DNA of 58,068 nt from a virus (taxonomy: Duplodnaviria; Caudoviricetes). Below the pieces are notes generated by a model. It made no database searches. It worked only from the letters and a program-made list of their open reading frames with translations, and had not been told where the DNA came from. Made by a program: the position numbers and the translations under genes. Location of the stretch: the IMG/VR virus record IMGVR_UViG_3300006947_000012, positions 1 through 58,068 of that record. One strand, given 5' to 3'. Positions 8,383 to 38,200 of this stretch are shown piece by piece. Position 1 is the first letter of the stretch. Every line of letters starts with the position of its first letter.

Positions 8383-8386
8383 TTGG

Positions 8387-8394
8387 CAAATATA
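8387..8394 (-). promoter_or_regulatory. Bacteroidota-type -7 promoter element TATATTTG
   Basis: Minus strand TATATTTGCCAAATG in the short intergenic gap; matches TAnnTTTG; no -33 TTG at 19 nt. Confidence 0.5.
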
Positions 8395-8398
8395 CTAA

Positions 8399-10387: not shown

Positions 10388-10388
10388 T

Positions 10389-12953
10389 TTATCCTTTTTT
10401 ATCTTCTATTGTTGCTTCAATGTTTGCAATTAACTCTTCGCCCTCAACTGTTGATATATAACTTTTATTCATTAGTTGTCTAATATTATCTATACCTTTC
10501 CTCTTATCTGTGCCGGTACCGCCCGCTATAGCTTTATTAATAACTAGCATTTGATTCTCAGCAGCTTTAAGTTGTTTAGTGTCTTTAATTTTAGTACTAA
10601 TAGCGTTTCTCATGTTCTGAGATAGAGCAATACTATTTTTAAGCATACTTGCTTTTGCATCATTATTAGCTACCTGATCGTTTCTATCGTTAGTTGTGTT
10701 AGCAGTGTCCGCTCTAAACTTAGCGTCCATGTTCATTTTCTTAGCAATATTATTTTGTTTTTTCTGCAATTCTGATTCTGTTTTAGCTATAGACCTTAAC
10801 GATCCTTGCCCTGCTTTTTGTGCAGCTATGATAGATGCCATACTTTTACCAGACTCTTGGCCCGCTTTTATATTAGCAACAGTTAATTGAGAGGTTCTTT
10901 CTTTATCATCTCCTAAGTCAACTGTCTCTGGAGTGTAAGAGCCCGGTTGTATTTTCTTAGATTTAACTTTTAACTCTCCTATTTTTTTGTTTTGTTTCTG
11001 AGCGTATCTATTAGCTTTCATAATACTAGCTATCTCTATAGCGTCTGTAATATTATTCATTCCTATTCTGTCTAAGAAGTTTTTCTTTGGTTCTTTGTCG
11101 TCAGGTGTAGTTTTGGCTTTTTGGTTTTCAGGTACTATATCTCCTTCCTCATTATAGTAATCTTCCTCAGCTGCCCACTCACCGTCTTTCCAAACATCTC
11201 CAAACGCTGTGTTAACTGCCCCCTCTTTTGGCATCCACCCTCCTTTATCTGTTCCATAGTTATTCTCTGTTCTAGTTGGGTCCCACTCTAAATCTTCAGG
11301 GTTAACTCCGTGCCCAGCGGCAGATCTAGCTCTATCATCGTTCATACCATCAATTGCTCCTTGAGTTTCATCCCCCATTTTACCATCAGCTCCATACTTA
11401 GGTAATCCATACCCCTTATCTAGTAGGTCGTTTTGCACAGATCTTGTCTCATCTGTTCCGTTATTAACACCTCCATCTCCAGGTGTAACCCCTTCAACAA
11501 CAACCTCTTCAGTAACTACTTCTTCAACTTGCTCCTCTACAGTAGGTGCAAGATCATTTACTCTTAGTATATCTGAATTATCTACATCATTAAACTTCTC
11601 ATCCGGGTAGTACCAACTTCCTTTCTCCCCGTACTTCCCAGAGAAATCTTGTTTTTGCACCCTACCGTTAAAGTAATTAGTTGTAATCTGGCCTCCTCTA
11701 GCGTTATTTCCAACCATATCCTCACCTTGAGAGATAACAGAGTTATTATCCCCTCTTACAGCTCCTGCCTCAAACCCTTCTGTGTCTAACATAGCTGTAG
11801 CAAACGTCCCTGCTCTCTTCATCCAGTTTGGCACACTCCAACTACTAGCAGTAGGGTTAGTGGTTGGTCTAGGTGCCCATCTTTGTGGAATACCTGACCC
11901 ACTCCCAAAAGGATTTCCAGGTATACCTCTACCAGACATAGGTAGACGGTTTGGTATACTAGGAAGTGTTGTTCCTGGAACGCTAGGTAAATATGAAGAA
12001 GTCACAGCTGGAAAGCCTCCTGTATAGTATTCTTCTGGCATTCTTCCTCTATACCCACCATCAGCTCTCACAGTCTGTTGGTGAAGTAACTCAGATTCAG
12101 AGATACGCCCTGCTTGTGCTGCGTTTATTTCTTGTGAAGGCATTCCTCCCATAAAGTACTTTTTCATTCCTCCGTCCTCCATATATGAAAGATCCTCCAA
12201 AGCTCCCATACCTAAGTTAGCCCCTCCTGTACCATACTCCTTCATTCCTCCATAAGCATGTGTAAAACCAGCCCCTTTTAATGAGTTATGCGCCCCTTCA
12301 TTTGTAGCAGATATTGTATACCCTGTTTTAGGATTAGTCATATCATGTGTTTTGTAACCTCCGTTCTCCATATATGGATTATTTCCACCCATACCGTATT
12401 CGTTCATACCTCCATTTTCAAGGTTAAATCTTTTCGCTGTGTCAGCAGAAACTTTACTTTTATCAGGTGCTTCTCCTCTTTTTCTTTTTGCGTGTACATT
12501 GTCCCAAAATCCTCTTTTACCACCAGACCCATACTCTTTACTCATACCTCCGTTAGCCGCTATATCTAAAGGACTTCCGTCTGGGTTCATGCTTTCATTA
12601 AGCTTAGCAAATTCTTGTTTAGTTTGTTGAGGTAAAGTACCTCCATTTTCAGCTTTAGCTTGTAGGTATCTTTGAGCAATTCCATTTTTATGTGACATAT
12701 AAAATTCTTGAGGGTTACCACCATTATCATAAATAGTAGTAATAACTTCTCCGGCCTTAGCTTGTCCATTTGGAGTATATCCTCCGCCTTCTAACTCTAC
12801 ATTAGAATTACGCAGCACACCTCCTTGATTATGTCCGGCCCCGTATACTACTTGGTCCCCACCTCCAGAATCTTTAATGTACCCACCTTTTTTATATTTT
12901 ACTTGACCGCTACTGTCTAAAGCCTTTCTAAGCCTATTTTTAAAATCGCTCAT
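10389..12953 (-). CDS. Cargo protein with repeated YxxGG motifs and a peptidoglycan-binding (PG_binding_1-like) segment, 854 aa
   Basis: GxxHxxGGV...VELEGG N-terminal motif typical of crAss-like cargo proteins; about ten YxxGG/xxNGG motifs; SVQNDLLDKGY...GADGKMGDETQGAI resembles PG_binding_1 (DGxxGxxT). Confidence 0.65.
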   Translation of the reverse strand: MSDFKNRLRKALDSSGQVKYKKGGYIKDSGGGDQVVYGAGHNQGGVLRNSNVELEGGGYTPNGQAKAGEVITTIYDNGGNPQEFYMSHKNGIAQRYLQAKAENGGTLPQQTKQEFAKLNESMNPDGSPLDIAANGGMSKEYGSGGKRGFWDNVHAKRKRGEAPDKSKVSADTAKRFNLENGGMNEYGMGGNNPYMENGGYKTHDMTNPKTGYTISATNEGAHNSLKGAGFTHAYGGMKEYGTGGANLGMGALEDLSYMEDGGMKKYFMGGMPSQEINAAQAGRISESELLHQQTVRADGGYRGRMPEEYYTGGFPAVTSSYLPSVPGTTLPSIPNRLPMSGRGIPGNPFGSGSGIPQRWAPRPTTNPTASSWSVPNWMKRAGTFATAMLDTEGFEAGAVRGDNNSVISQGEDMVGNNARGGQITTNYFNGRVQKQDFSGKYGEKGSWYYPDEKFNDVDNSDILRVNDLAPTVEEQVEEVVTEEVVVEGVTPGDGGVNNGTDETRSVQNDLLDKGYGLPKYGADGKMGDETQGAIDGMNDDRARSAAGHGVNPEDLEWDPTRTENNYGTDKGGWMPKEGAVNTAFGDVWKDGEWAAEEDYYNEEGDIVPENQKAKTTPDDKEPKKNFLDRIGMNNITDAIEIASIMKANRYAQKQNKKIGELKVKSKKIQPGSYTPETVDLGDDKERTSQLTVANIKAGQESGKSMASIIAAQKAGQGSLRSIAKTESELQKKQNNIAKKMNMDAKFRADTANTTNDRNDQVANNDAKASMLKNSIALSQNMRNAISTKIKDTKQLKAAENQMLVINKAIAGGTGTDKRKGIDNIRQLMNKSYISTVEGEELIANIEATIEDKKG

Positions 12954-12965
12954 TATTTATTATTA

Positions 12966-14141
12966 TTATATGTTATATTTAAAACCTCCTAGTGCGCCTG
13001 AACCATAAACAGCTCTTTTACCATATCTTGATTTTTGAGATCCCTGTGCTTTAGAATTAGCTAGTACGTCTGCAGTATGCTCATTTTCTAATTTAGTTTG
13101 TGCTTTTGTTAATTTTCTTTTTTCTTTTCCAGCTTCTCTTTTTAACTTATTTCTTCTAGCCCATTGAGACCCTATATCGAATATTTGCATTCCAGCCCCT
13201 ATCCAATCAAAGGTAACTAAATCTAAAGCTAAACTAGCTACATCAGTTCCAACTTCTGCTGCAGTATACGTAGAATCATCATTATCATCGCTTAAGTAAT
13301 GTAACCCCAGGTCAACAGGCACTGTCCAAAGACCTCCTGACACAGGAGCTGTCGCACTTCCTGCAACTTTACCTCCTACATCTGTTGCTACATCTGTTGC
13401 TACATCTGTTGCTACATCTGTTGCTACTTTCCCTACTACTTCATTAGTAGCTTTATCTACTACTTGGTCTCCAACTGCCTTATAGAATTCAGAATTATAA
13501 CTTGCATTAACCCCAGAAATAGTGCCTGAAGGAATTGCTGAGCTTGCAGCTTCTATAGTATTAATGCCAGATTCAAGCTCTGGATAGTAGGTTTCTCCTT
13601 GTGGGACAGCGAAACTTTGAGGCTCAGTTTTTGCACTACTTACCTGAGGGTTAGCTGCTTCATATCTCATATTAGCGTCTGATAAACCTTGGTCAGTAGC
13701 ATATTGCCCTATACCTCCAGGATCATTTAATGTTGCTGAGCTTGCGTCATACCCCCCACTTAAATCTCTTGTAAATTCTGGAGATACATCTCCCCTACCC
13801 GTGAATTTATCCGTTATTGAGGAATTAATATTATTTCTATAGGATTTACCATTATCTCCTTTCCCAGAAAGACTAAAATTAATACCACTTTTTATTTGGG
13901 ATTGAAGTGCCTTGTTTTCTTGTATTTTCTGATTAGAAAGTTGGAGATTAGTTTTATAATCTGAAATTAGTACTTCTTGATTTTGATTATAAGTATTAGT
14001 AGTAGCAGTTTGTAAAGCGTTGATTCGTTCCGCATCAGCTTGGGCCTCATAAGTATTAGACCCATAGTCTGAGAACCCATATCCACCAGTATTATATTGT
14101 TTACGTATTTTTTTAGGTGTGTATTTTGATTTATAATTCAT
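12966..14141 (-). CDS. Putative cargo/ejection protein with C-terminal hydrophobic segments, ~391 aa
   Basis: ATG at 14141 follows the muzzle stop (TAA-A-ATG) and is preferred to the overlapping 14171 start; KQYNTGG motif; DVAT repeats; hydrophobic VASLALDLVTFDWIGAGMQIF followed by a basic helix. Confidence 0.6.
   Translation of the reverse strand: MNYKSKYTPKKIRKQYNTGGYGFSDYGSNTYEAQADAERINALQTATTNTYNQNQEVLISDYKTNLQLSNQKIQENKALQSQIKSGINFSLSGKGDNGKSYRNNINSSITDKFTGRGDVSPEFTRDLSGGYDASSATLNDPGGIGQYATDQGLSDANMRYEAANPQVSSAKTEPQSFAVPQGETYYPELESGINTIEAASSAIPSGTISGVNASYNSEFYKAVGDQVVDKATNEVVGKVATDVATDVATDVATDVGGKVAGSATAPVSGGLWTVPVDLGLHYLSDDNDDSTYTAAEVGTDVASLALDLVTFDWIGAGMQIFDIGSQWARRNKLKREAGKEKRKLTKAQTKLENEHTADVLANSKAQGSQKSRYGKRAVYGSGALGGFKYNI
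13377..13424. repeat. Perfect 12-bp tandem repeat (TACATCTGTTGC)x4 encoding (ATDV)4
   Basis: Four exact copies read directly from the sequence. Confidence 0.95.
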
Positions 14142-14142
14142 T

Positions 14143-17100
14143 TTATCTATATGTTTTACGTTTTGACGCACCTGCAGAATGCAAAGTTACTAAAAATTTT
14201 CCAGTATTACTAGCAATATCATTATTTCTATTCTGCACTAGTCTTACAGCTATCCATTTATCTACAAACTTTCTTCTCGTATTCCAAACTTTAGAACCTA
14301 AAGAGTTTAATTGTATATTAATATCTGCTAATAATAAATTTGTTGATAAGATAGGGTTGTCTATAGGAGCATCTAAAGTAGTATTAGCTGTCAGAGTGCT
14401 TTGATTTCTATCGTCTCTAAACCCGTTAACATACCAAGTTCTTTCTTTTCTTCTTACATTTGCAGTAGACCAAAGTTGATTATTAGTTCCTTCAGGTTCT
14501 ATCAGAGTAGCTCCCCCTGTTAATTGATGACTATTATACACATAGAAATAATCAAATCCTGAATCATGCACTTCATGCCTTACTCCGCCCTCATCGTTAG
14601 ATGGCACCTCTATGTCTGCAGTATAGTAAAAATTAGAATATAATTTATTATCATCAGGCGCTTCATTATCTATATATTCAAATACTATATCATAGTCCAC
14701 GCCATAGTATCTTCCTATATTATAAAGAACACCCGCACTATTTCCTTTAGGTAAATTTGCAAGAGAACTACCTCTTTCATGGTTATGCTCATACAACTTT
14801 GACCCAAAAAAGCCGTAAAAATTAGTGGTAGTGTAAAAATACGTGTTAGGGTAAAAATCGTGCAGAGATCCCCATATTTTTAAAGCTGGATAATAAGATA
14901 TTGTCCAAGATGCATCTTCAAAATAAATAGCATCATCCCAATCAATAAGATCGGCAGTGTCAGTATTTATAAAGTGCCTAGAGTACTCGTTCCAATCTAA
15001 ATCCCCTGCTGTATGCAAACTTATAAATGCATCTGTAGGCATTTTATCTAACTTAGTTAAAATAAATCTAGCATACTTAGGGTCCCATGTAGATATTATA
15101 CCTATACCTATAGTGGGTATATCTATATTAGATGGAAGTCCATACTCCAATAACGACCAAGATGTTAATCTTCTTAGTAAAAACTCTTTTAACCCGTAGT
15201 TAGAGACTTCCTCTAACTCCTTAGCTAGTAAAAAAACTTTACCTGTCATCTTATCTACGGAAAAATGTCCATACCTACTTGTAGCAACACTAAACTGTGA
15301 TAAAGTACCACCGTACCCTCTGTCCGTGAACAACACTTCGTCTGGCTCATTTTCAAATAAATCACCACTCCCAAGAGCTACTGATGAAGTATCTGATAGG
15401 TTAAGATCTTCTTTACCTTTTGTTTTAAGTAGGGATCTTTCTAGAATAGGTAGCAGTACATTATCAAAAGACGATAGGTTCCATAACTCTCCTCTGTTTC
15501 TAGGCAGGTCCCTGTATTGTTCTGGCTTATACGTTCTAAAATTATCTACAAGACCTTCCCGGTTGTGCTTAACACTTCTAATAATTCTTGTTGGATAATC
15601 CGCTATTGAGGCTGTTACGTTCAGGTGATCAAAAGGTATAGTACCTTTTATGTCATTTAACGAATCCATAGTTGTATCATAACTAAAAATTCTAAAGGAG
15701 TTTACAAAATTATTATTTTGTTTAGAAGACTCGCGTTTAACAAGAGGATAAAAATCTTCATTATCATTTCCTAGAGAATATCTTTGGGAGATATTTACTT
15801 TAGACTCTGTTATATACATCTGCTGACAGTAATCTGTAGATGTTTTTCCTGAAACCGCTCCTAAATAGCCATAAGAATAATGTGTGTACCACTCTGTTGC
15901 TGGCCAAAGACCGCTCTGAGGATGCTTCCAACCCTCTTGCTGCATATGTCGTGTTTCTGTATAGTAATCTATAAATGTATCCCCTCCAAATATGATGTCT
16001 GCATTACTGGCTGGTGTAGGGGTGCCTGTCATATTAACATAAGAAGAAGAATTTATAGTAGACACATCATGAGTATATCCTGTGTATATTAAACTGTACT
16101 GACTGCTAAAAGGAGAGTATACATCTGGAATGTATTTATGCACTCCACCATATGCATGATATTGAGCTATATGGCTGTGCTGGTCATATGACTGGTATGT
16201 ATCATTACTGTGGGTTGTAGCGCGCCATTGCTCAGCAATTACCCATCCTTCCTCCCATGTATTCCCACCTTGACCGTTAGGTTTACCTATAGATAACGCA
16301 TAAGTAGTTGTACCACAACCTCCAACAGTAAAATTCTGCAGACCTACATCCCATGCGCCATTACCAAATAAATCATAATCCTGTAGACCAACATTAAGAG
16401 CCGCGTTAACCATGTCCTTAGTAAAACATGAAGTTGCAGGACCACAATTCATATACGTAGCTCGGTTTTGAGTTTGGTATACATTTTTAACTGTCCTACC
16501 CATATCTAAAGACCATATAGGTCTATTAGCGTACAAAAAAGTAGTTTGACATCCTCCTATATTATTTACGTTTGTGCTTGTACCAGGAATAGAAACAGTT
16601 TCATTACTCTTTATATTATATTTTGCTTTTAATGATCTTATATTAGGAACTTTGCCTGGCGCTATACCAACAACATCATAGTCAGGCCCTGGTAAACTAT
16701 TACCAGTTTTTGATGCATAGTGCTCATAAGGCATACGCGTCCAGTCTAAAAACCAAGATATTTTATTAGTACTAGAATAATCTAGGCCTGTCTCATCACT
16801 TCTAAGAATAGTTACTCCTGCCATACGGCCATTGGTATCATCTGTCCTTCCTATCCTTAAATGTCTAGTTATTTTTATATAATCTATCCCAGAAATATCA
16901 GGATCACTCACCCGCATGTGAAGACCGTTAAAAGTCATACACTCTCCTTTAGCAGCCCAATCATCTCTGTCCAGATACCCACTCCACTTAGTAGTTTTAA
17001 CGTCATTGTACGGGGCGTGGGTACAGCTAAAAGGCGTTGCGACTACAGATCCTCCTAAATCTGGCGGGGACTGTATCATATATTCTAAACAAGGTAGTCC

Positions 17101-19948: not shown

Positions 19949-20427
19949 TATTTATATTTTTTAAATTTAAGATACGCCAACTCGTTTGATTTTAATATAC
20001 TAGTTAATTTTTCTTTGTTTCCTTTAACACCTCTTGTAGCATCAAACCTATATACAGATTTATTTGGTACAGAACATTTACCTTTTCTCCAGTAGTACTT
20101 ATAATAGTTTTCATCTGTAAAATATATTTGCCATTTAACTCCTTCTCCGCTGTCTTTATTATATAGCTTTGATCCTGCAAGTTTAAGCTCCTCTTTATAT
20201 TTATTTGATTCTGACCAATCTACTCTTGGGGATCTAGGGTCTCTCTTCATTCTTACAATAGACAATGTAGATAGGTTATACCCCATATTAAATTCTTTAC
20301 CTTCTAATATATACTCAACTGCTAACATATTAAACTCACTGCAAATATCTTTAAATAGTATTTTATCTACAGAATTATCTACGTTTTTAGTATAGTCATT
20401 ATATATATGTGATAAAGTATAATTCAT
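19948..20427 (-). CDS. crAss-like conserved IHF/HU-related protein, 159 aa
   Basis: Helical N-terminus, EGKEFNMGYNLSTLSI, VDW, YYWRK and YRF motifs; IHF-like genes occupy this tail-module position in crAss-like phages. Confidence 0.5.
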   Translation of the reverse strand: MNYTLSHIYNDYTKNVDNSVDKILFKDICSEFNMLAVEYILEGKEFNMGYNLSTLSIVRMKRDPRSPRVDWSESNKYKEELKLAGSKLYNKDSGEGVKWQIYFTDENYYKYYWRKGKCSVPNKSVYRFDATRGVKGNKEKLTSILKSNELAYLKFKKYK

Positions 20428-21107
20428 TATCCTGCAGGAGGCGTTGTTATATCTTGTTTTCTATCTAAGACTTCATCAGTAATTGTAGATGATAATAATC
20501 CCATCTCACCTTGCATAATGCCAGATGTAATCATTTGTAACATATCCATAGGCATTGGAAAATCAGACTTTGAATTATAGCAATCTGTACCGTCACAATC
20601 AAATTTAGAGATTTCTTCTGGATCCTCAAACACACCTCTAACATTAACAAACCCTATGTCTTGATCGTTAACTAAATATAGATAATCTTCAATCATATAA
20701 GCTTTAGTACTATCTTTAGTATATTTATCATAAGGTAAATACTTAACCATATGAGGCTCTATCATTGGTATGCGAGTAGTACCGTCGACAGCTCCTACAT
20801 AGGTTATAGCATCTGTAAAATTAAATCTAATTGTTTTTGGTATTTTTTCTATACTACGAACTACTTTACAATCTAGAGGAAGGTTGCAGCACTGCGAAGC
20901 ATTAACAGGTTTAAGTTTAATACATCCTAGACTTTGTTCTAGATGTCTTGTTACTAGTCCGTTACGTGCAAAATCTCTTCTTACGAGCATTGCTCGATAA
21001 TACTTAACATTAAATTTTATCTGGGATATAGATATACTCTCATCGTTGTGAGATTTTCCTCCTCGTACCAGGTTTAAAATATTGTATGCAATTTCATCTA
21101 GAGTCAT
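20427..21107 (-). CDS. Tail ring protein, 226 aa
   Basis: MTLDEIAYNI start, CIKLKPV...CC, YMIEDYLY, VRGVFEDP, FPMP motifs like crAss-like ring proteins; TAATG coupling to the next gene. Confidence 0.7.
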   Translation of the reverse strand: MTLDEIAYNILNLVRGGKSHNDESISISQIKFNVKYYRAMLVRRDFARNGLVTRHLEQSLGCIKLKPVNASQCCNLPLDCKVVRSIEKIPKTIRFNFTDAITYVGAVDGTTRIPMIEPHMVKYLPYDKYTKDSTKAYMIEDYLYLVNDQDIGFVNVRGVFEDPEEISKFDCDGTDCYNSKSDFPMPMDMLQMITSGIMQGEMGLLSSTITDEVLDRKQDITTPPAG

Positions 21108-21112
21108 CTTCT

Positions 21113-22243
21113 TTATAAATTAGTTTGTAAATAGCCTTCATATCCTCGTAGTTTATTCCATATATGTGCTTGTCCAGTTCTTTTAGCTTCATACCCCATC
21201 ATTTTATGCCATGCATCATTACCGCAAATAGATGGTATAAATCTTACTTTTATTCCACGGTACTCATTAACCATCTCTTTATGTTTATGTCCACAATGAA
21301 CTTCTCTATTAGTTGTTCTTGAAAACATCATAGGCTCTTCAGTTGCCATTATAAGTGGCATTTCTGCAGGTTTTTCTTTGTCTCCGTGTGTAAACATAAT
21401 CATATTTGTTCCATATTCATAATACTTTCTAGAGTTATAGTTGTTGTCAACTGTTACTCCTTCATGTTTCAAAAAGAAAGCTCGTAAAAACTCTCCTGAA
21501 TAAAACATTCTTTCATAGTCATGATTCCCTTGTATAACAATCACATCTACAGGCGCTATATCAGACAGAAAATTTATTGCTCTTACCATTAAACTGCAAT
21601 ACCCTACAAATGTTTCTTGCCATTCTGCGCCATCATGTTGAGGAGTACCTTTAGTTGTAGCTCTAGAGTACCCTTCAGAATTCATACCATCATTTCCTAT
21701 TGGTAAAAGTATTCTATCTATATTTAATCCTGATGCTTTATTCATAAGATCTTTGATCGTATTCATATAAGCCTCTTCTGATTGCTCTAGTGTTTGTCCG
21801 TCTATCTTACCATAATGAATATCTGGCAATGAAACTTCGCACACTATAGGATCTTCTACAGCTTCATACTTCTTCTCAACTACAGGACTATATTCTTTAA
21901 GAGTTTTAAGCATTTCTTCTTTAGCCTCTTTCATTATATTATCCTCCCCTTTGGTAACTACAGAAAATCTGTTATCTCCTTTAATTGTCTGCCAAAACTT
22001 TACAGACTTAACATCATCTTCTGCTATACCGTTACTATCTAAGAACGCTTTAAACTCATTGATTTCAGATGTACTTATATTATCTATATCAAAGTCGTTA
22101 CCTTTTGCTTCTATTCTTGCTTCTTTTAAAGCATTTCTACATGCTTCAACACTACAGTCTAATCTTTCAGAAAGACGTTCAGCACCTTCTTTAAGGTAGC
22201 CAGGCCTGTCTTTCAAGAAGGCCTTGATCTGATCTTTAGTCAT
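21113..22243 (-). CDS. Calcineurin-like metallophosphoesterase, 376 aa
   Basis: Complete motif set: PDIHYG, IGND, GNHD, THGD, GHKH. Confidence 0.88.
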   Translation of the reverse strand: MTKDQIKAFLKDRPGYLKEGAERLSERLDCSVEACRNALKEARIEAKGNDFDIDNISTSEINEFKAFLDSNGIAEDDVKSVKFWQTIKGDNRFSVVTKGEDNIMKEAKEEMLKTLKEYSPVVEKKYEAVEDPIVCEVSLPDIHYGKIDGQTLEQSEEAYMNTIKDLMNKASGLNIDRILLPIGNDGMNSEGYSRATTKGTPQHDGAEWQETFVGYCSLMVRAINFLSDIAPVDVIVIQGNHDYERMFYSGEFLRAFFLKHEGVTVDNNYNSRKYYEYGTNMIMFTHGDKEKPAEMPLIMATEEPMMFSRTTNREVHCGHKHKEMVNEYRGIKVRFIPSICGNDAWHKMMGYEAKRTGQAHIWNKLRGYEGYLQTNL

Positions 22244-22261
22244 ATATCTAGTTATTGGTTA

Positions 22262-22654
22262 CTACTTTTTAACTTTCTCCAGCGATCTCCCACCAAAGTA
22301 AGCCCCTATTACAGTGATCAAAACTAATTGTAATAAGTCAACCCAGCTAGCTTTTACATCAAAAGCTATAACTCCTGCATCAATAAATACTAGTAGCATA
22401 GTCGATACTACTAGAAAGATTAATACTAAAGGTCGTATGTTTTTACTAAGCCATGAATCAGAAGCCATATCCATCTTCCAACGCTCAGTTACTTGTTTTT
22501 GCATTTCTGCTTCATAACCCATTACTAGGTCTTTAATTTTTGCCTCAGCTGCTAGCTTCTCTTCTTTAGACGTATGTAAGTTATCTATAACTCCACCCAC
22601 GCTTTCTACAAGCTTAGCTGCTCCACCTGATAATAATTTTGTTAGTATACTCAT
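22262..22654 (-). CDS. Holin (3TM, GTA-type holin family), 130 aa
   Basis: RWKMDMASDSWLSKNIRP and GAYFGGRSLEK signatures, hydrophobic helices, close to endolysin. Confidence 0.85.
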   Translation of the reverse strand: MSILTKLLSGGAAKLVESVGGVIDNLHTSKEEKLAAEAKIKDLVMGYEAEMQKQVTERWKMDMASDSWLSKNIRPLVLIFLVVSTMLLVFIDAGVIAFDVKASWVDLLQLVLITVIGAYFGGRSLEKVKK

Positions 22655-22666
22655 AATTTTTTGTTT

Positions 22667-23224
22667 TTAATATCCGCCACTATTACTACTACTACTATTA
22701 CTCCTACTGCCACCAGCACTACTGCTACTACTAACAGTACTGTTAGAGCTACTACTAGTACTTGTAATATTTATACTACTGCTAGTACTTCCTACTACAT
22801 TTAATATTAAATCTGCTGTACTAGCAGTATCGTCCAAAGATATATAAAGATCGTATATCCCATGGTCATATAACAAAATATTATCTTCTAATAATAAGTT
22901 AACTCCATTCACAACTGATTTATTCTTTAATATATAGTAGGTAGTCTTAAATTCTTCTTCTGTCTCCGCTATAACGGGGTGTACATACAAAGAAGGGGTA
23001 GACTTACCGGTAGCGTCAGTGGTATAAACAGTAGGGCCATCTCTGTAAGTACTACTTAGATTTGCTTTTTCTACCCACCCACTATAATTTATATACAGAT
23101 TAACTTTTATATCTCCTGAGTCTTTAGTATTACAAACTTTAATGCAATGTATATCTAAATTACTGCCTTTTTTAATTAGCTTTACAGGAGTTGTCCCACT
23201 TATATTTTTATATATATATCCCAT
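22667..23224 (-). CDS. Hypothetical protein with Ser-rich C-terminal tail, 185 aa
   Basis: ORF fills the gap between endolysin and holin; beta-rich core; low-complexity Ser/Gly end. Confidence 0.6.
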   Translation of the reverse strand: MGYIYKNISGTTPVKLIKKGSNLDIHCIKVCNTKDSGDIKVNLYINYSGWVEKANLSSTYRDGPTVYTTDATGKSTPSLYVHPVIAETEEEFKTTYYILKNKSVVNGVNLLLEDNILLYDHGIYDLYISLDDTASTADLILNVVGSTSSSINITSTSSSSNSTVSSSSSAGGSRSNSSSSNSGGY

Positions 23225-23230
23225 TATAAA

Positions 23231-23686
23231 TTAAATAACCATGTATTTAGTTTTACCTTTTTCTTTATATGCTTTTAAACATCTGTTTCTATTGTCAATC
23301 TCATTGACATAACTAATGTGTACCCAGTTAGGATTTTTATCATCACCAAACTCCCAGATCATCTGATCAAAGTTTAAGTTCTCTTTAATCCACTCGTACA
23401 TTTCCGCATTAGTCTTCTTACAACCTCCATCATCTATGTCCATAGCTTGACCTTTACAGTGTTGAGATGATGTTGATCCACCAATAGCTTTGTTCAAAGC
23501 TGGGCCTCTATAAAAACTATTAATTCTAATAGGTCCTCCAACCCACTCTCTTAAAGGTTCAAATATCTGCTCTGCAACTTCCTTCATGTTAGATAGCTCG
23601 AATTGACTTGGCTTATTCTCTAAACCTCTTCTTGTTGCTGTTGTGCTAAATGTTCCTTCTTTATCGCTTATGTGTTTGCTAATCAT
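23231..23686 (-). CDS. Endolysin, peptidase M15 family (Zn peptidase), 151 aa
   Basis: INSFYR, SSQHCKGQAMDID (HxxxxxxD) and WVHISY motifs. Confidence 0.9.
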   Translation of the reverse strand: MISKHISDKEGTFSTTATRRGLENKPSQFELSNMKEVAEQIFEPLREWVGGPIRINSFYRGPALNKAIGGSTSSQHCKGQAMDIDDGGCKKTNAEMYEWIKENLNFDQMIWEFGDDKNPNWVHISYVNEIDNRNRCLKAYKEKGKTKYMVI

Positions 23687-25892
23687 TGTTTATTCTTTTT
23701 TCAATTGTACCGTCATTGTAGATATAAAACAAAATTTGATTTTTATTTTCTTTTGTTTGTCTGCCTAATAAATCTGTAATCATTATTAGCTCTTTTTTAA
23801 CTTGTGCTCTTCTTAATAGTGGGCCAGCATAAGTGCCTTCACAGTGATTATATGTCAGCTGACAAATTGTATCCCAAGAATTGTTACAACAATAATCATC
23901 CACTGATATTACCCAAGAGTAGCAAGGATCATTCATCCAATAAGGATTTCCTGGGCCAGTCACACAACCAGCATCATACTTACAATTATTATCACTAACG
24001 TTAGCAATACTCGAGTAGTTATAGGCGTTTGGGTCCAAACAGCCTTCAACAATTGATATACAAGAGTTATTTTCTGTATTAGCAAGTGAGTCATAGTTAA
24101 GAGCTGACGTATCCATACATCCATATGCAAACTCAATGCAACTAAAATCTTCTGTATTAGACAGGGGATCATAGTTAAGCATAGAAGGATCCGTGCAACC
24201 AAATATAAAAGGAGTACAGCTGCTATTGTTAACATTTGCTAAAGGGTTATAATTATACATTGTGCTATCAGTACAGCCATATATAGGTAGTACGCAGGTA
24301 AAGTCGTCTGTATTGCAGCTATCACAATAATTTAAAGCTATTGGGTCAGTACATCCATAAGCAAATGCTATACAAGAGTTATTATCTGTGTTTGCTAGTT
24401 GTACATAGTTAAACATTGTAGAGTCTGTACATCCAAATATAAAAGGAATACAAGTTCCATTGTTAGTGTTAGCGGTAGGATCGTAGTTAAACTGAGTTGG
24501 GTTTATGCATCCATATATAACAGCAATACAACTAGAGTCATCTGCGTTAGCTGCAGGGTCCCAATTAAATGCCAGAGTATCTGTACATCCATAATTAACC
24601 CCAATACAACTACCGTCGTCTATGTTGGCCAGTGAATCGTAATTTATAGCTATTGAACTCATACAGCCATAAACAACAGCAATACACTCAGCGCTAGTGT
24701 TTGCCTGAGGATTGTAGTTAAAAGCCAAAGGCTGCATACATCCTAAGATCACAGGAATACATCCACCATTATCTATATTAGCAAGTGAATTATAATTAAA
24801 TGCCGTAACGTCATCACAACCCCAAACAGCAGGCGTTAAGCAGCTTCCATCACTTGTGTCAGCCGTAAAGCCTTGCGTGTAGTATTCTAAGTAAGCAGGG
24901 CTAGTACAGCCAAGAACGTAAAAGCATTGAGTGTTTGTGTTAGCTGTGTCTACATAGTTAAGAGCTAGTGGATCCATACAACCAAAGACTCTATCAATGC
25001 AATAGTTACCGCAATAAGTTGATACAGTACGTTTAAACAATGGTTGTATAAAAGGCGCTGCAACCTCTATCATATTCATGCCTAATGGGTTTGTCAGTTT
25101 AAATCCACAATGAGCAGCTGACTGCTGTCCTTGTGAAGATATTGAAAACTTAAACGATACTTCTTGCGGTGATCTTAAGTTTATACTGTACTCTTGCGCG
25201 TAAGCAACTGTATCTAATGTAAAATTCCAAACACTGTCACCTTGAGTTACCTCTAGGTTTGATGTCGGCGCCCAACCATCTCCAATTAAATCTGTTAATG
25301 TTAATATGAATTCACAAGAAGGTACTAAAGACATAGTGTTAGCTAGAGAATCATAATTATACATTGTAGAATCAATACAACCAAGCACTATTAAAGTACT
25401 ACACGACCCATCGCTTGTATCAGCCCTAGGATTAAACTCTACGTAAGAAGAGTCCATACATCCAAATACAGGCGGGCAAGGAGCAGATAAAATAACATGA
25501 GATGTATCATTACCAAAAGCAGCGTCTGTCCCAGTAACTATAGTGTCATAACATTGCACTACATAGTAAGAACCATCTAGCCCACCCCAAAGAGCCCCAT
25601 TTAAACCATCTCCGTACGAATCATATATTGTGAATACTAAAGGGCCAGGAGGTAAACATCTTTGTTCTTCAACAACTCCATAGTCAGGTTCTGAACCATA
25701 GTTTTGCCCGTAAGTTATTAAAGTACCACTAGTGTCAGTTACAGTCCAGTACGTTTCACTTTGATATTGATCAAGATTTATAATTATTGTTGTTTGAACA
25801 CAAGTCTGTGCAGAAGTTACTATAGGTAATAAAGCTAATAATAATAACCAAACTAGTAAAGTTATCTTTTTCATTTTTTGTATTTTTTTCAT
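23679..25892 (-). CDS. Secreted Cys-rich protein with 15 GC(T/M)D-type repeats and a T9SS-like C-terminal tail
   Basis: Signal peptide MKKITLLVWLLLLALLPIVTSA|Q (start 25892 or 25874); DSYGDG/DLIGDGW domains; ~26-aa repeats GCxDxxxxNYxxxANxxxxSC; ends ITDLLGR...FYIYNDGTIEKRI. Confidence 0.8.
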   Translation of the reverse strand: MKKIQKMKKITLLVWLLLLALLPIVTSAQTCVQTTIIINLDQYQSETYWTVTDTSGTLITYGQNYGSEPDYGVVEEQRCLPPGPLVFTIYDSYGDGLNGALWGGLDGSYYVVQCYDTIVTGTDAAFGNDTSHVILSAPCPPVFGCMDSSYVEFNPRADTSDGSCSTLIVLGCIDSTMYNYDSLANTMSLVPSCEFILTLTDLIGDGWAPTSNLEVTQGDSVWNFTLDTVAYAQEYSINLRSPQEVSFKFSISSQGQQSAAHCGFKLTNPLGMNMIEVAAPFIQPLFKRTVSTYCGNYCIDRVFGCMDPLALNYVDTANTNTQCFYVLGCTSPAYLEYYTQGFTADTSDGSCLTPAVWGCDDVTAFNYNSLANIDNGGCIPVILGCMQPLAFNYNPQANTSAECIAVVYGCMSSIAINYDSLANIDDGSCIGVNYGCTDTLAFNWDPAANADDSSCIAVIYGCINPTQFNYDPTANTNNGTCIPFIFGCTDSTMFNYVQLANTDNNSCIAFAYGCTDPIALNYCDSCNTDDFTCVLPIYGCTDSTMYNYNPLANVNNSSCTPFIFGCTDPSMLNYDPLSNTEDFSCIEFAYGCMDTSALNYDSLANTENNSCISIVEGCLDPNAYNYSSIANVSDNNCKYDAGCVTGPGNPYWMNDPCYSWVISVDDYCCNNSWDTICQLTYNHCEGTYAGPLLRRAQVKKELIMITDLLGRQTKENKNQILFYIYNDGTIEKRINND

Positions 25893-25893
25893 T

Positions 25894-26256
25894 TTAAAAA
25901 TCACTCATTAATAGGTTATCTATTTCTTGTTGCACTTCCTCTTTCTTTGCCATCATCTTAAAGCTAAGGTCAGCTTGAAACCTAGCAACCTCTTCTCCAT
26001 CTTTAAATATTATTATAGTTGGTATAGCAGCTATTTTATGTTTTACTTGCATTTTAGGAATAGCTGCAATATCTACATATGATATTGTTTGACAATCATC
26101 AAGGTCCATCACCCACCCAACAGCATTATCATTATTCCAACTAGCATTAAACTGTGCTACAGATATTTGACCAGAAGCTTTACCACATATACAAACTAAA
26201 AAAAGCACTAATAAATAGATGCCTAGTATTTTCCAAGAAACATCTATATTCTTCAT
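25894..26256 (-). CDS. Exported thioredoxin-fold protein lacking CxxC, 120 aa
   Basis: Hydrophobic N-terminus ending ASG|Q; FNASWN where FxAxWCxxC is expected; VDI, IPTIIIFKDGEEVARF typical of thioredoxin C-terminal half. Confidence 0.75.
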   Translation of the reverse strand: MKNIDVSWKILGIYLLVLFLVCICGKASGQISVAQFNASWNNDNAVGWVMDLDDCQTISYVDIAAIPKMQVKHKIAAIPTIIIFKDGEEVARFQADLSFKMMAKKEEVQQEIDNLLMSDF

Positions 26257-26537
26257 TATCTGTTATATAATTTATCCTCTATTCTTTCTAGCGTTTTCTT
26301 CATTTCATCTACGTCAGCTTTTGTATCCATAATAGTTTGCCTAATCATCTTATCCTTCATATCAAACTCCATACGAGTAACTTCTGGGTCTGGTGCAATC
26401 GGTAACTCCATAGCTTTTGCTATATCAGCCTGCAACATAAACCACATACTAACCAAAGTAAATATTAAAGCCGCTATTCCTCCTAATGTTTTTATACTTA
26501 GTTTTAACGTTGTGTCTTCGTTTAGTTCTTTTGCCAT
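26256..26537 (-). CDS. Single-pass membrane protein with C-terminal coiled coil, 93 aa
   Basis: TLGGIAALIFTLVSMWFML hydrophobic stretch; heptad-like charged C-terminus. Confidence 0.7.
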   Translation of the reverse strand: MAKELNEDTTLKLSIKTLGGIAALIFTLVSMWFMLQADIAKAMELPIAPDPEVTRMEFDMKDKMIRQTIMDTKADVDEMKKTLERIEDKLYNR

Positions 26538-26538
26538 G

Positions 26539-27609
26539 TTAAAATATTACGTAATTTACTCCAAATTTAAAATCATACCAGGTTCTATTCCAATATTTAT
26601 TATACTTTCCTTCTACAAAATATCCTAAATTTTTACTTTGTTTTATTCCATATATTAAACCAGCAGAATAATCATACCATTGATCATCCTCTATATAGTT
26701 ATGATATGAGAACTCACTACCATCATTATAATGCCAAGGCATTAAATTACCCCATGCGTGTAACCAAGTGTGTTTAGAATATTTATAATAGTCAAACCCA
26801 ATAACAATTGAATGCTGTATCTGATCCTTTAAAGCACTCCTTTTCTTTTCAGAGTAATCAGATAATACTTGTGGAATAACTACTTCCTCCCATACTTGTG
26901 CGTTAGTAGCAACTATATCACCATCCGGGTCTTTATATTCATTTGCGTATACATCTACTGTATACCCTTCCATTATAGCTAAATACGTATAATGAAGACT
27001 TCCATTATCAAGTATCCAATCTTCTAATGGATTGTAGCCATAAGGTTCTGATAACCTGTGCGCAGCCCCCACACTAAAAGCTAAGTTTTTATCTTTCTTA
27101 ACTCTCCATCTTTCTGATAACTCAAAATATTCTATATCAGCAAAACCGTCTTTTAGATATTCTACTTTTGCAGCAAATTCATTCATACACAAATCACCTA
27201 CACAATCATCGTCAGAACTATACCTAATAAAGTGATGTTGATTTATATAATCTACTCCTTGTTGCCTAGAATAATCTACTTCAAATAAATATTCAAACCC
27301 TTGAACTTTACCTACTGTAGCATTATCTGACCAAGACTCTTCTGTTCCATTATAAAAAGTATTAGCTTTATTTTCATATCCAAATCTAGCTATTTTTCTA
27401 ATACCAAAAGTAACAGAATAATCATAAGGAGTTACTATATTTTCTTGCTCTAATTCTCCCGAAGACACAGAAAAAGTTTTAACGTCTGACAACGAAGTCC
27501 CACCATTTACAGCCCCATATATTGTAGAAAACTTTAATTGTTTAGCTAACGTTTGGGCATTACTTATAGTTGAAAAACTTAAGAGTAATATAATAATGAA
27601 ATTTTTCAT
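26539..27609 (-). CDS. Putative outer-membrane beta-barrel protein, 356 aa
   Basis: Signal peptide MKNFIIILLLSFSTISNA|Q; aromatic-rich alternating strands; terminal FKFGVNYVIF fits the BAM beta-signal (final Phe). Confidence 0.7.
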   Translation of the reverse strand: MKNFIIILLLSFSTISNAQTLAKQLKFSTIYGAVNGGTSLSDVKTFSVSSGELEQENIVTPYDYSVTFGIRKIARFGYENKANTFYNGTEESWSDNATVGKVQGFEYLFEVDYSRQQGVDYINQHHFIRYSSDDDCVGDLCMNEFAAKVEYLKDGFADIEYFELSERWRVKKDKNLAFSVGAAHRLSEPYGYNPLEDWILDNGSLHYTYLAIMEGYTVDVYANEYKDPDGDIVATNAQVWEEVVIPQVLSDYSEKKRSALKDQIQHSIVIGFDYYKYSKHTWLHAWGNLMPWHYNDGSEFSYHNYIEDDQWYDYSAGLIYGIKQSKNLGYFVEGKYNKYWNRTWYDFKFGVNYVIF

Positions 27610-35211: not shown

Positions 35212-38200
35212 TTAAAAATCAAAATTAGAATTATTTGCGTTAAATATTTGAGAAACTACTGCTTCCATCTGTGCTGGTGTTAATTGATCTCCTACTGAAC
35301 ATGTAGGACAAACTTCATCTAAATAGCCTGTAAAAGAATCTTGTATATCAGCTAGTGAAAAACATATATTTAAATTTTGTAACATATGTTTAATCATTAT
35401 TGTTAACCAAACCTGTCTTACATCTAAAACGTTAGAAGCTAGAGCTCCGTGTATTTTAGACAAAGCTTCGTTTGCTAATGTTCCTGGGCACTCAACTAAA
35501 TCAGCTAAAGCAGAATCATCAGTAACCCATACATTGTTTGTTATAAATCCAGTATTATCTGTAGCAGAGACACATGGACCTTTCTTTGTGTATGTAGTAT
35601 TAGGAAATCCTTCATCATCATAGCAAGCACCACAATCTAAAGGAACTTCGCAAGGAGCAGTTACATCTGATATACAAAACAGAGAACTACCTGATAGCTG
35701 AACTGTAGTTCCTATTGTAGGGCAACTGTATCCTATAGTTGTACCTATTTGTATTTCTATATTATCATAGGAAGAACTGCTTAAAGGGTTATTTGCATTA
35801 TCTGTTAATATATTAGAAGTTAAATCTCCTATAGTAAAAGTAGGACTTAACATAGCAGCTGCAAAGAAAGCACCTGCTTGCGCTCCAAACCCTAGTTTAT
35901 TTGGGTACACTTCAAAAGCTAAAAATGCATCAGTGCTAGTTGTATTCATAGCTTGAAACGATAGTGAATGTAAGCCTGAAGGTAGTACTACAGGAAATAA
36001 ATTAACATAGTCTGTATTGTCTGCTATTGTTGTTGCGTTACCAGTAGTTGCATCTAAATGAATATACTCAACACCATCTATATACATTTTAACTTCTTCT
36101 GATCCTGATATAGCTATAATGCTTTCTTGTGTAGTCCCAAAGTTTATCTCTGTTATTACACCAATAAACTCATTTTGTGGTGAGACTGGGAATACTCCAA
36201 CAGTACCGCTATTTCTCCAGATAGCAATTTGATTAAGCCTTGTATTCCAAACATTAGATATAGAATTAACTGCTGTTATGTCTGCTCCAATTAAAGGCCC
36301 AGAAGCATCATTCATTACAAGAAGATTAGATCCTGTAGTTGCAAGATCTCTTATTAACGGTAATGCGTTTACATTAATATTAATAGAAGATGCATAATTT
36401 ACTATACCAGTAAGAACATCGTATGGCCCATATAAAATAGCTCCATTAGAAGCAAAGTTAACTGGTGTAGCTTGCCCTAAATATAAATTAGGTATCAATG
36501 TCCAATAGTCAGGAGTAATAGTGTTAGCTATAATAGGCTCTATTTCAGTACTAATACACTCTCCATTAGTAGCGCTTCCTGGTACTAAATCTAACTCATA
36601 TCCTATAGGGCACACACAATCACAATTAATTGCTCCATATATAGATATTAACCCAAAGATACCATTATCAATTCCGACAGTAGAGATTTGAACACACCCT
36701 GCAGAGTCTTGAACATAAAATCTATATTGAGCACCTAAAAAAGATCCTCCTAAATCTAATGACACACTTACATCTTGTATCATAAAACTAGTAGCTGATG
36801 TTGTATAATGCGTAGCAGCATCAAAGTCAGAATACGTAAGACCTGAGTCTTCAGATATTCCCCATATATTATTATTTAATCCAATACTAGGTATAACTGT
36901 TCCTGTTAAAGTACATTTATCTGGCTCTTGGTCTAAAGGACCTATACCTGTACAATTAGTAAGTCCTGTAAGAGCACTATATACTGGTCCTGATGTAGCG
37001 ACAGCAGAGATAGTATAAGGAGGAGTACCTCCTACTAAATTTAATGATATAGCTCCAGCCGTATCTCCTGGGAATTGGCAATGACTAGTGACACAAGCGT
37101 TTGCGTCTGTAAAATTAGATAAAGGTATTAGCTCTATTTTAGTGCAAGATCCCTCTGTAAATGCTGCTCCAGCGGATAGACCTAAAGTCTGTAAATTAGT
37201 AGTTGGTACCCATGTACCTGACACACTAATTAAACATGACTCAAAGTCAGCGTGGCAGTTGTTATCATAAGAAGATAGCACTGTTTGATCATCAGGATCT
37301 GCGAAGTACTCTGAAGCACATCCGCTACCGTCTCTAACCCATATACTTTTTATACCTCCTAATAATCCTGTAAAAGTATATGTTCCTGTTACAGCTGTAT
37401 ATGTATTACCATTATCAATAGAAACTTCAATAGCTCCATTACCTCCGTGAGTTGTAATAGTTATAGAACCGTCTGGGCAGTCAATACAAGTAGGATGTAC
37501 CCAAGTAATATCATCAATATATACTATTGGATCTTGTAATTCTGTTATTGGAGCTGACACACCACCACAACTATCAGTTACTATACAAGTATATTTTCCT
37601 GGCCATTGTACTGCTGAAAGATCTTGTGTTGTAACACTAGACCATTGTGTGTTTACGTTAGCATGCCCTACTATAGAACATGTATTAGGTAATCCAACGT
37701 ATCCCCATAGATATGTGTATACTACAGTTAATATCTGATTTTCATATGTTCCTAGAGTAGGAGTAAGGTTTATAGATCCATTACACGTATTAACTCCAGA
37801 AGCTCCAAAAGAACTGCAACCACAACAAGTAGGATCAACATGCGTAGTTGTAGCTACAACATTTTGATAGTCAGACGCTAATATAGTAGCAGTATGCAAA
37901 GAATCACATTGCCCTGTACCTCCATTCTCTACTAATTTAATATCCCAAGAACTACCGCCAGTAAACTGCAAATTAGATCCACCTGCTTTATCTCCTCCTG
38001 CTCCTCCTGTTATTTGGAAGTATGTGTTAGACGCAACATTAGAAGTGTCGTAAGCGAGTCCTGTTGAAACAATATTACCTGTTGGTGTATCATAAGCTTG
38101 AACAGATGTTATACTTAAATTAGTACCTGAACTATTTGTTACTTGTTGGTAAGAACCACCACCTGAAGGCTTAATATAAACATCATATGGAAATGTACCT

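Follow-up and report, generated by a model that had tools for sequence, protein, structure and literature searches.

In a 58,068-base window of the IMG/VR virus record IMGVR_UViG_3300006947_000012 (the window being the whole stretch of DNA that was analyzed, ∼67% of the genome, with all sizeable genes on the minus strand), four neighboring genes encode products that are predicted to be directed to the inner membrane, the periplasm, the outer membrane (OM) and probably the cell surface. On the evidence of sequence comparisons the four genes are two separable units: a conserved trio, encoding a β-barrel protein, a helical membrane protein and a thioredoxin-like protein without a CxxC motif, and a lineage-specific gene for a cysteine-rich repeat protein (the Cys-repeat protein). 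It is tentatively proposed, with somewhat less than even confidence, that the trio acts on the cell envelope at lysis in a spanin-like manner; that it represents a third kind of phage OM disruption machinery, after spanins and disruptin-type peptides, is a stronger claim that is put forward with more reserve. The proposal builds on export signals, folds, gene linkage, a phage-only spread in the genomes searched and a frequent adjacency to lysis genes, all of which are shown by the analysis.

The conserved trio and its companion gene

In the direction of transcription, the barrel gene (26539..27609, 356 aa) is followed by the genes of the helical protein (26256..26537, 93 aa), the thioredoxin-like protein (25894..26256, 120 aa) and the Cys-repeat protein (23679..25904, 741 aa from a GTG start; the ESM Atlas record begins at the ATG, residue 5), all on the minus strand. 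They are separated by a 1-nt gap, a 1-nt overlap and an 11-nt overlap, respectively, the last being a 1-nt gap when counted from the ATG start. An earlier reading of the DNA without database searches (the sequence-only reading) had described four tightly coupled genes. The coordinates, gaps and overlaps agree with this description, but the packing runs on into both flanks: upstream, a 535-aa gene shares 1 nt with the barrel gene; downstream, the end of the Cys-repeat gene runs 8 nt into the M15 endolysin gene, with the holin gene 1 kb beyond. Therefore, spacing sets no boundary around a four-gene unit. A promoter and terminator scan returned fewer sites than shuffled sequences, with a sigma-70 model that is unsuited to Bacteroidota promoters.

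Signal peptides were called with our own heuristic, which considers the charge of the n-region, the hydrophobicity of the h-region and a small-x-small site followed by Gln. Among the 36 window proteins of at least 90 aa, a signal-peptide-like N-terminus was found in the barrel, thioredoxin-like and Cys-repeat proteins alone, with predicted cleavage sites SNA↓Q, ASG↓Q and TSA↓Q, respectively; the n-region of the Cys-repeat protein contains six K/R residues and its h-region has a KD value of 3.17. The envelope targeting claimed for the four products, the fourth being the helical protein with its transmembrane (TM) segment, was borne out by this, and so was the Gln after all three cleavage sites, which no other window protein shares. 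The signal-peptide feature is retained in 75/75 distinct barrel homologues and 63/63 thioredoxin-like homologues. In the Cys-repeat family it occurs in 60 of 70 sequences (57 with Gln at +1), the remaining 10 including long forms without a signal peptide and copies cut at a contig end. A lipobox-like site replaces the type I site, or lies beside it, in 27/75 barrel homologues. Export substrates following the Q-rule have been noted earlier in Bacteroidota phages, namely in Porphyromonas phages (PMC10367356).

The same signals bear on a rival explanation, by which the four products would belong to the virion, e.g. as tail-fiber accessories, and their hydrophobic N-termini would not be export signals. 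The genes do lie inside the tail/fiber block, and relatives carry long signal-less Cys-repeat proteins that are probably fiber-like. Set against this are the Gln+1 signal features throughout the barrel and thioredoxin-like homologues and in no other window protein outside the set, the lipobox-bearing barrels, a barrel that is modelled as a membrane β-barrel, and the lack of a match to any structural-protein family, which together make a virion role very improbable.

Linkage was analyzed at 80 window-like loci, kept from the 112 close relatives of the barrel in viral contigs, and at 80 loci of a divergent lineage, kept from the 222 viral-contig relatives of a barrel (P0030) that is ∼34% identical. 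By tblastn, 73 of the window-like loci had the helical protein, 70 the thioredoxin-like protein and 69 the Cys-repeat protein; the misses were mostly contigs ending beside the barrel gene, and the trio was complete in 67 loci. In the divergent lineage the trio was complete in 74 of the 77 loci with a barrel match, and a Cys-repeat homologue within 7 kb of the trio was found in 0/80 loci, a weak open reading frame (ORF) resembling type IX secretion system (T9SS) cargo of type A being seen at two near-identical loci only. When barrels were clustered at 80% identity and at least three genes were required on both sides, the trio was complete in 18 of 18 lineages. Since the trio is kept in the divergent lineage without the Cys-repeat gene, it is the conserved unit, with the Cys-repeat gene as its lineage-specific companion. 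A test for co-occurrence of the four families had been suggested from the sequence, and independent genes without conserved linkage had been named as evidence against it; linkage in both lineages was found for the trio, and such independence for the fourth gene.

The order of the genes varies among window-like loci, the barrel gene lying directly upstream of the helical gene or downstream of the Cys-repeat gene, and small genes often stand between the thioredoxin-like and Cys-repeat genes, encoding nucleases, phosphatases or highly basic proteins. These inserts comprise a PAP2-family phosphatase (E 2.7e-9) and several very basic small proteins in L015, L016, L028, L046, L050, L051, L054 and L060, and a staphylococcal-nuclease (SNase) homologue (phrog_452 endonuclease, E 1.9e-38) at the same place in other loci. 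Between the barrel and helical genes, a ∼185-aa lipoprotein with a clear lipobox is encoded in L089, L100, L138, L148, L149, L151, L156 and L162, and other lipoproteins in L126 and L144. Together with the 27/75 barrels bearing a lipobox, these insertions suggest that an OM lipid anchor is a recurring, not a constant, extra. At two loci of the divergent lineage (L106:3629-6331 and L114:8989-11604) the trio adjoins ribonucleotide reductase genes, which is probably a coincidence.

The window phage is uncultured and marine and, judged by its marker genes, is crAss-like (Crassvirales): Crass_capsid (E 6.4e-78), CrAss_Ring_1 (E 2.4e-52) and CrAss_Ring_2 (E 8.2e-36) were all identified in the window, and the muzzle C-terminal domain scored under its cut-off. 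The divergent-lineage phages examined are not crAss-like; the neighbors in a 164-kb genome are RecA-like, 5'-3' exonuclease, DnaB and ribonucleotide reductase genes. When the region was compared by blastn with 50,697 phage records in search of cultured relatives, just a 125-nt match, in the endolysin gene, was obtained. By tblastn, the barrel had no match in the cultured phage records and the Cys-repeat protein had one match in the phage records, to a marine virus without annotation, which spans 16% of the query.

In a set of genomes representing 185,579 species by one genome each, the barrel was present on six contigs, all of them contigs of metagenome-assembled genomes (MAGs), labelled Flavobacteriales, Winogradskyella, Parvibaculum, Rickettsiales or Maricaulis. 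On the four with a complete barrel gene the other two trio genes were also present, so that these contigs look like binned phage DNA. Across the family to which the Winogradskyella MAG belongs, 1/201 genomes was matched by the barrel profile and 1/201 by the helical profile, on the same phage-like contig; the thioredoxin-like profile also weakly picks up ordinary host thioredoxins in two MAGs, and the family-wide scan is based on the other two profiles. Within the genomes searched, the trio is found in phages only. For the window phage we infer a Flavobacteriia host, solely from the MAG bins that hold related contigs.

Predicted structures of the three trio proteins

The barrel protein matched no Pfam, PHROG or NCBIfam family and no PDB sequence at E up to 10, and neither PorP_SprF (PF11751, with E up to 10 allowed) nor the cyanophage Phage_OMP family was matched anywhere in the window. 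A Pfam family was likewise found in 0/21 full-length or near-full-length divergent homologues, a 22nd carrying an FGE-sulfatase domain. Nevertheless, the family is large: among 1.84 billion cluster representatives, its profile had 399 matches at E up to 1e-3, in addition to the close relatives in viral contigs described above. A second divergent barrel (P0072) had no relative in the viral-contig scan.

An AlphaFold2 model of the barrel, computed from 41 sequences of which some are 25-38% identical, reached a mean pLDDT of 79.9 and a pTM of 0.73. It consists of ∼12-14 long antiparallel strands with a segment of low confidence at residues 74-92 and a 75-residue, partly helical insert at 188-262. 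Searched against the PDB with Foldseek, the model retrieved OM barrels exclusively (NanC, FapF, DcaP, OmpG and autotransporters; E 4e-6 to 1e-3, TM-score 0.3-0.37 on the query). In an all-against-representatives comparison with VIA-align, Tsx scored highest (Z 14.7; 200 residues aligned, rmsd 4.2), followed by KdgM (13.6) and NanC (13.5), with autotransporter barrels (10.8-12.8), LpxR (11.8), OMPLA (10.4) and PorV (7.5) lower. PorV (Z 7.5 for 6h3i_F; Foldseek rank 24 for 8gl6_F) thus ranked under Tsx, KdgM, NanC and the autotransporters. The viral structure library BFVD contained one close match, a UniProt protein (E 2.4e-24), the others being assorted phage 'porins', and the named neighbors in the ESM Atlas were OM barrel families throughout (0.92-0.93), which serve as leads only. 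By heuristic and model, the protein has the features of an OM barrel, i.e. a signal peptide, a closed antiparallel barrel and a C-terminal strand with an aromatic residue at its end; the window protein and 38/50 close homologues end in F, and 12/50 in R. The β-barrel call made from the sequence is upheld by the model and its Foldseek and VIA-align matches, and on this model the protein is a ∼12-strand OM barrel of a new family. Its conservation is high, with a mean column identity of 65% over 50 sequences, and predicted loops account for about half of its 91 invariant residues, in keeping with fixed protein partners. Two of the conserved loops are long, at residues 73-103 and 188-262.

The ranking of Tsx raises the question whether the barrel is an uptake channel, e.g. 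for nucleosides as in Tsx, that feeds phage DNA synthesis, with the other two proteins as accessories. Besides the best structural match to Tsx and the next ones to the sugar-acid channels KdgM and NanC, the adjacency of the trio to ribonucleotide reductase genes in some divergent-lineage loci would agree with such a function. However, unrelated 12-strand barrels (autotransporters, LpxR, OMPLA) score within 2-4 Z units, so that the match is at the level of the fold only, and no sequence relation to Tsx was found in the Pfam and PDB searches. A channel would have no need for a strictly linked inner-membrane helical protein and a dead thioredoxin, and the gene lies in the late region of the window. 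An uptake channel is therefore regarded as quite improbable. An OM enzyme of the OMPLA, LpxR or PagL type was considered as well, prompted by the high conservation; it was not supported, as OMPLA (Z 10.4) and LpxR (Z 11.8) do not score above non-enzymatic barrels.

The helical protein has a single hydrophobic segment starting from about residue 17 (KD19 1.97), after a conserved charged N-terminus, and this anchor is kept across the 42 aligned sequences of the family (mean column identity 52%). Cysteines are absent from 42/42 sequences. The topology predicted from this pattern is ∼17 cytoplasmic residues, one TM helix and ∼55 periplasmic residues that are probably helical, in an orientation which we infer. 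All matches of the protein were weak: phrog_1009 (E 0.008), PspC (E 0.008, far under the cut-off) and, from the PDB, a designed coiled coil (E 0.05), the latter being the sole hint of a coiled coil for the ∼55-residue domain; no solved or curated relative was found in the PHROG, NCBIfam and PDB searches.

For the thioredoxin-like protein, the family profile identified 179 thioredoxin-type sequences of the PDB at E up to 0.01 (best E 4.6e-12), with an F-N-A-x-W/F-N stretch aligned opposite the WCGHC of the matched PDB protein; the window sequence alone reached 22.3 bits against the Pfam Thioredoxin cut-off of 23.5. The proposed CxxC-less thioredoxin is confirmed by the family alignment, in which a CxxC motif occurs in 0/48 sequences and the cis-Pro, P79, is invariant. 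Therefore, thiol-disulfide chemistry is impossible for this fold. Redox-inactive thioredoxin folds, e.g. the b domains of protein disulfide isomerase (PDI), keep the cis-Pro loop, have lost the CxxC motif and serve in binding. The phage protein differs from the PDI b domains in being an exported single domain that is encoded after a membrane-anchored helical protein and that has a near-invariant C-terminal aromatic residue. This last residue is F or Y in 47/48 sequences and is steadier than that of the barrel itself (F in 24/41 in the wide barrel family). It resembles the C-terminal signature of OM proteins and, as an idea only, could be a docking element.

The genes of these two proteins are strictly coupled. 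In 146/155 copies the thioredoxin-like gene starts within 60 nt after the helical gene, with a median overlap of 1-4 nt. In L122-L125, L128 and L129 (e.g. L122:6294-9650), two helical/thioredoxin gene pairs surround one barrel gene; next after the doubled pairs and the barrel come an M15 endolysin gene and the gene of a 129-aa lipoprotein. It is argued from the adjacency of the two genes and their doubling as a pair in one lineage that the proteins work as a pair.

Lysis genes and the proposed role of the trio

As stated in the sequence-only reading, the four genes are located between tail-fiber and lysis genes. The endolysin (Peptidase M15_3; 23231..23686, minus strand, read from 23686 to 23231) matched PF08291 with E 3.9e-14 and phrog_894 'endolysin' with E 6.9e-33, and the 130-aa holin with C-terminal TM segments (22262..22654, minus strand, read from 22654 to 22262) matched phrog_3427 'holin' with E 1.8e-30. 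Against GTA_holin_3TM the holin scored 24.4 bits, just below the cut-off of 24.8, and a TM segment was also detected. In full, the transcription order is a 947-aa fiber-like protein, a LamG-like protein (231 aa), the 535-aa protein, the barrel, helical, thioredoxin-like and Cys-repeat proteins, and then the M15 endolysin, a 185-aa protein, the holin, a metallophosphatase-type exonuclease and Ring 2.

Lysis genes were counted for five families (the holin type of the window, M15, an endolysin-like 200-aa family, Amidase_2 and holin_4_1) at eligible loci, i.e. loci with enough flank on both sides. A lysis gene was present within 5 kb in 27/37 window-like and 23/35 divergent-lineage loci, and within 1 kb in 8/53 and 35/64 loci, respectively. 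The nearest lysis gene was co-directional in every case (44/44 window-like, 53/53 divergent-lineage). At the level of lineages, a lysis gene was found within three genes in 10/18, or in 8/18 if DUF5675, which we take to be a lytic gene, is excluded. In the 164-kb non-crAss phage the genes are arranged in the order small TM protein, barrel, helical protein, thioredoxin fold, endolysin (PG_binding_1 and Amidase_2) and holin (Phage_holin_4_1), and in other lineages in the order thioredoxin fold, barrel, M15 endolysin and holin. The sequence-only reading had listed OM disruption among three possible purposes of the genes, and it is this direction that the lysis-gene context favors.

Spanins are the known agents with which the trio has to be compared. 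In a survey of spanins, 91 of 677 phages were without a spanin, including the Bacteroides phage B124-14 and the Croceibacter phages P2559S/Y, and the survey asks whether another route of OM disruption exists (Kongari et al., 2018, PMC6139136). In the 58-kb window, a six-frame scan found no credible ORF with a lipobox for a small lipoprotein, the pattern itself being hit twice, once in an ORF on the strand opposite a large gene and once at an internal start within the Cys-repeat gene. Among the real window genes, only those of the helical protein and the holin encode membrane proteins. The helical protein shares with i-spanins an N-terminal TM anchor with the remainder predicted to be periplasmic, and no small OM lipoprotein of the o-spanin type is encoded beside it in the window.

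By analogy, the trio is like the two-component spanins (lambda Rz/Rz1) in that the gene of an OM partner stands beside that of a protein anchored N-terminally in the inner membrane, with a periplasmic arm (probably helical in the trio), and in that the genes are co-directional with, and often adjoin, holin and endolysin genes in phages whose Gram-negative hosts have an OM to be breached. In contrast, the OM partner of spanins is a small proline-rich lipoprotein, whereas that of the trio is a 356-aa β-barrel; a third, periplasmic protein with a thioredoxin fold is obligatory; the arm has ∼55 residues and no cysteines; and there is neither an embedded or overlapped gene architecture nor a sequence relation. 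The likeness would be one of function.

In the proposed mechanism the helical protein would be anchored in the inner membrane and reach into the periplasm with a helical arm, the thioredoxin fold, free of cysteine, would act as a periplasmic binding module and not as an enzyme, and the 12-strand-type barrel would be placed in the OM. The helical protein and the thioredoxin fold may form a fixed pair that engages the barrel. Acting late, together with holin and endolysin, the trio would breach or loosen the OM: after the endolysin has cleared the wall, the arm and the thioredoxin adaptor, locked to the barrel, might tear or fuse the membranes. The trio would then be the functional counterpart of spanins in Bacteroidota phages without recognizable spanins, and the Cys-repeat protein an add-on with changeable N-terminal binding domains, probably at the cell surface.

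Several points weigh against this proposal. The contact among the three proteins is a proposed one, and their timing and their effect on the OM are deduced from the context. A β-barrel needs the assembly machinery of the host, and we know of no precedent for one as a fusogenic or lytic partner. On the models, the fold matches are to generic barrels of 12 strands and carry no hint of a function. With ∼55 residues, the arm that the helical protein extends into the periplasm is much shorter than that of lambda Rz and has no cysteine in any of the 42 sequences, while ∼96% of two-component spanins have a periplasmic Cys (PMC6139136). Adjacency to lysis genes is frequent and not universal, being seen in about half of the lineages, and in some loci the trio stands among replication genes (L101). 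The loci are related to each other, the lysis models are few, and the modularity of late genes inflates proximity to lysis genes. As the window is ∼67% of the genome, a spanin could lie beyond it. Finally, the Cys-repeat gene stays with the trio in 69/80 loci of the window lineage (tblastn), so that some functional tie between them is possible.

A different use of the same proteins would be to remodel the envelope of the infected cell for a non-lytic end, such as superinfection exclusion or receptor masking as proposed for phage-encoded OM barrels like lambda Lom, with the Cys-repeat protein as a second surface-masking or adhesion factor. Accessory surface genes often lie beside lysis or tail genes, as lambda bor and lom do, about half of the lineages have no recognized lysis gene within three genes of the trio, and the variable N-terminal domains of the Cys-repeat protein would suit a surface role in an arms race. 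Phage OM barrels are also common: BFVD holds many phage 'porin/OMP' models, and a 2026 preprint reports 1,603 OM barrels in huge phages and cites work in which Lom binds LamB and blocks superinfection (bioRxiv 10.64898/2026.10.24.761521). Lom and the OM proteins (OMPs) of huge phages are, like the window barrel, made by the phage and inserted by the host into its own OM. Compared with Lom, the window barrel is of a different family, has ∼12 instead of 8 strands and conserved loops, and is strictly linked to two exported proteins. The main text of the preprint contains neither 'thioredoxin' nor 'T9SS', and its supplementary tables could list relatives of the barrel. Exclusion genes, however, are usually sporadic and fast-evolving, whereas the trio is complete in 18/18 lineages and its barrel has 65% column identity, loops included; a set covering three compartments exceeds what receptor masking needs; and the nearest lysis gene is co-directional in 97/97 cases. 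Non-lytic remodelling is possible in our view, if rather doubtful.

The lysis genes of the window and the metallophosphatase-type exonuclease (phrog_704) lie in the middle of the tail block (20427-23686, minus strand), between the fiber genes and Ring 2/Ring 1/muzzle. The 185-aa protein between endolysin and holin (22667-23224, minus strand) has a Ser-rich C-terminus of low complexity and belongs to no family (phrog_37593, E 0.003). In relatives, another small protein with a low-complexity tail precedes the holin gene.

The Cys-repeat protein and the wider picture

The Cys-repeat protein, with 45 cysteines in 741 aa, is built of a signal peptide, two domains each with a D-x-x-G-D-G-W/L motif, 2 + 14 two-Cys repeats of ∼26 aa, a Cys-rich module that is modelled as a helical hairpin, a disordered linker and a conserved tail of ∼40 residues (the last ∼42 residues, 23682..23807, minus strand). 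A motif pattern detected 13 of the repeat units, and 3 more were identified by eye; no tandem repeat was found in the underlying DNA. No Pfam or NCBIfam family was matched by the protein, and it alone among the 14 large window proteins checked has two-Cys repeats. Its N-terminal domains vary widely among relatives, one of which has a MAM domain (E 4e-18). Long proteins of 1,296-1,584 aa without a signal peptide share the two-Cys repeats and are encoded upstream among the structural genes of relatives (L003:76-3963, L004:3904-8100, L017:3304-7779, L020:2118-6869, L024:2301-6824 and L069:799-5061). This suggests that the repeat module is also used in proteins that are not exported and probably belong to the virion.

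The short tail occurs in 46 of the 70 distinct sequences of the family; in 10 others its place behind the Cys-rich module is taken by a tail with the type A YPNP motif. The six canonical-tail homologues that were scanned all scored 32-55 bits on PF18962 (cut-off 27) and also above the TIGR04183 cut-off. The window protein, in contrast, had no hit to PF18962 or TIGR04183 at E up to 0.1-1, and in six-frame searches neither model matched its tail even at E up to 10; a profile comparison of the short tail with the canonical tails of the relatives gave a probability of 5.7%, over the last 14 columns only, which does not establish homology. An AlphaFold2 model of the last 98 residues showed the tail as three short strands (pLDDT ∼81-84; whole model pLDDT 67, pTM 0.39). 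T9SS type A sorting domains are seven-strand Ig-like β-sandwiches (PMC12618676), and in this model of modest confidence the window tail is not of that form. The 'T9SS-like' character given to the protein by the sequence-only reading thus holds for 10 positional homologues and is not shown for the window copy. The protein is probably Sec-exported, disulfide-rich, adhesin-like and sent to the cell surface; judged by their tails, some relatives would reach the surface via the host T9SS, and the window copy ends in a shorter tail without a match to any T9SS model.

It had been proposed that the four proteins form a single surface-display machine, with the barrel as a shuttle or anchor (a part comparable to that of PorP/SprF for type B cargo), the thioredoxin as a folding helper and the helical protein as the inner-membrane partner. 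The linkage of the four genes in the window lineage and the 10 positional cargo homologues with a canonical-looking type A tail (the six scanned being above thresholds) speak for it, a cargo with 45 cysteines could use a periplasmic chaperone, and a neighboring gene for a cognate OM shuttle is known for cargo with type B C-terminal domains (CTDs) (PMC12618676). A secreted adhesin-like protein encoded beside an OM barrel in a Bacteroidota setting is indeed a feature common to such pairs and the four genes. However, the trio persists without the cargo throughout the divergent lineage, where 0/80 loci have a Cys-repeat homologue, and the barrel gene shifts relative to the cargo gene while the helical and thioredoxin-like genes stay together. 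There is no PorP/SprF match for the barrel (PF11751 is without a hit across the window with E up to 10 allowed), and PorV, at Z 7.5, is below generic barrels. The relatives of the cargo have type A tails, and type A cargo uses the PorV of the host, so that no private shuttle is needed (PMC12618676). The thioredoxin fold is incapable of redox chemistry (CxxC in 0/48), the window tail has no recognizable sorting domain, and the genes are phage-borne, unlike the type B pairs. The single display machine was therefore not sustained and is considered unlikely.

Phage-encoded cargo of type A has been described among the variable genes of 'Cryophage' (Bellas et al., 2020, PMC7468147), and ORFs with T9SS sorting domains on crAss-like contigs (PMC6949934). 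The Cys-repeat family has in common with these a Sec signal, variable passengers and, in 10 relatives, the type A tail. The window protein differs in its short three-strand tail, which fails the T9SS models, in its 45-Cys repeats in place of glycoside hydrolase or PA14 domains, and in its linkage to the trio.

Two further groups of large proteins were observed in the window. A 2,744-aa protein (35212-43446, minus strand) has 70 cysteines, no signal peptide, one match to an SprB repeat (E 8.5e-7) and an internal stretch that weakly resembles a type A tail (12.5 bits, sub-threshold); it is probably a giant virion fiber or surface protein. Four large proteins encoded 3' of the muzzle gene (1-14171, minus strand; 2,794+, 662, 854 and 401 aa) are without any cysteine, in contrast to the Cys-rich exported and fiber proteins, and the largest of them (2,794+ aa) has an AAA_30 domain.

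In full-text literature searches no described system with this make-up was found, in agreement with the novelty that had been claimed for the four genes. What is new in the trio is the barrel family and an exported thioredoxin that is redox-dead. Since the 2018 survey, the passage of spanin-less phages through the OM has stood as an explicitly open question, and the trio is an abundant and strongly conserved candidate. The Cys-repeat gene adds to the phage proteins that bear a host T9SS tag, or a short tail in its place. If the proposed lytic role is true, the trio would explain how spanin-less Bacteroidota phages complete lysis. Even if it is not lytic, the trio would represent new biology, as a phage-only set from which every envelope layer of marine Bacteroidota receives one protein.

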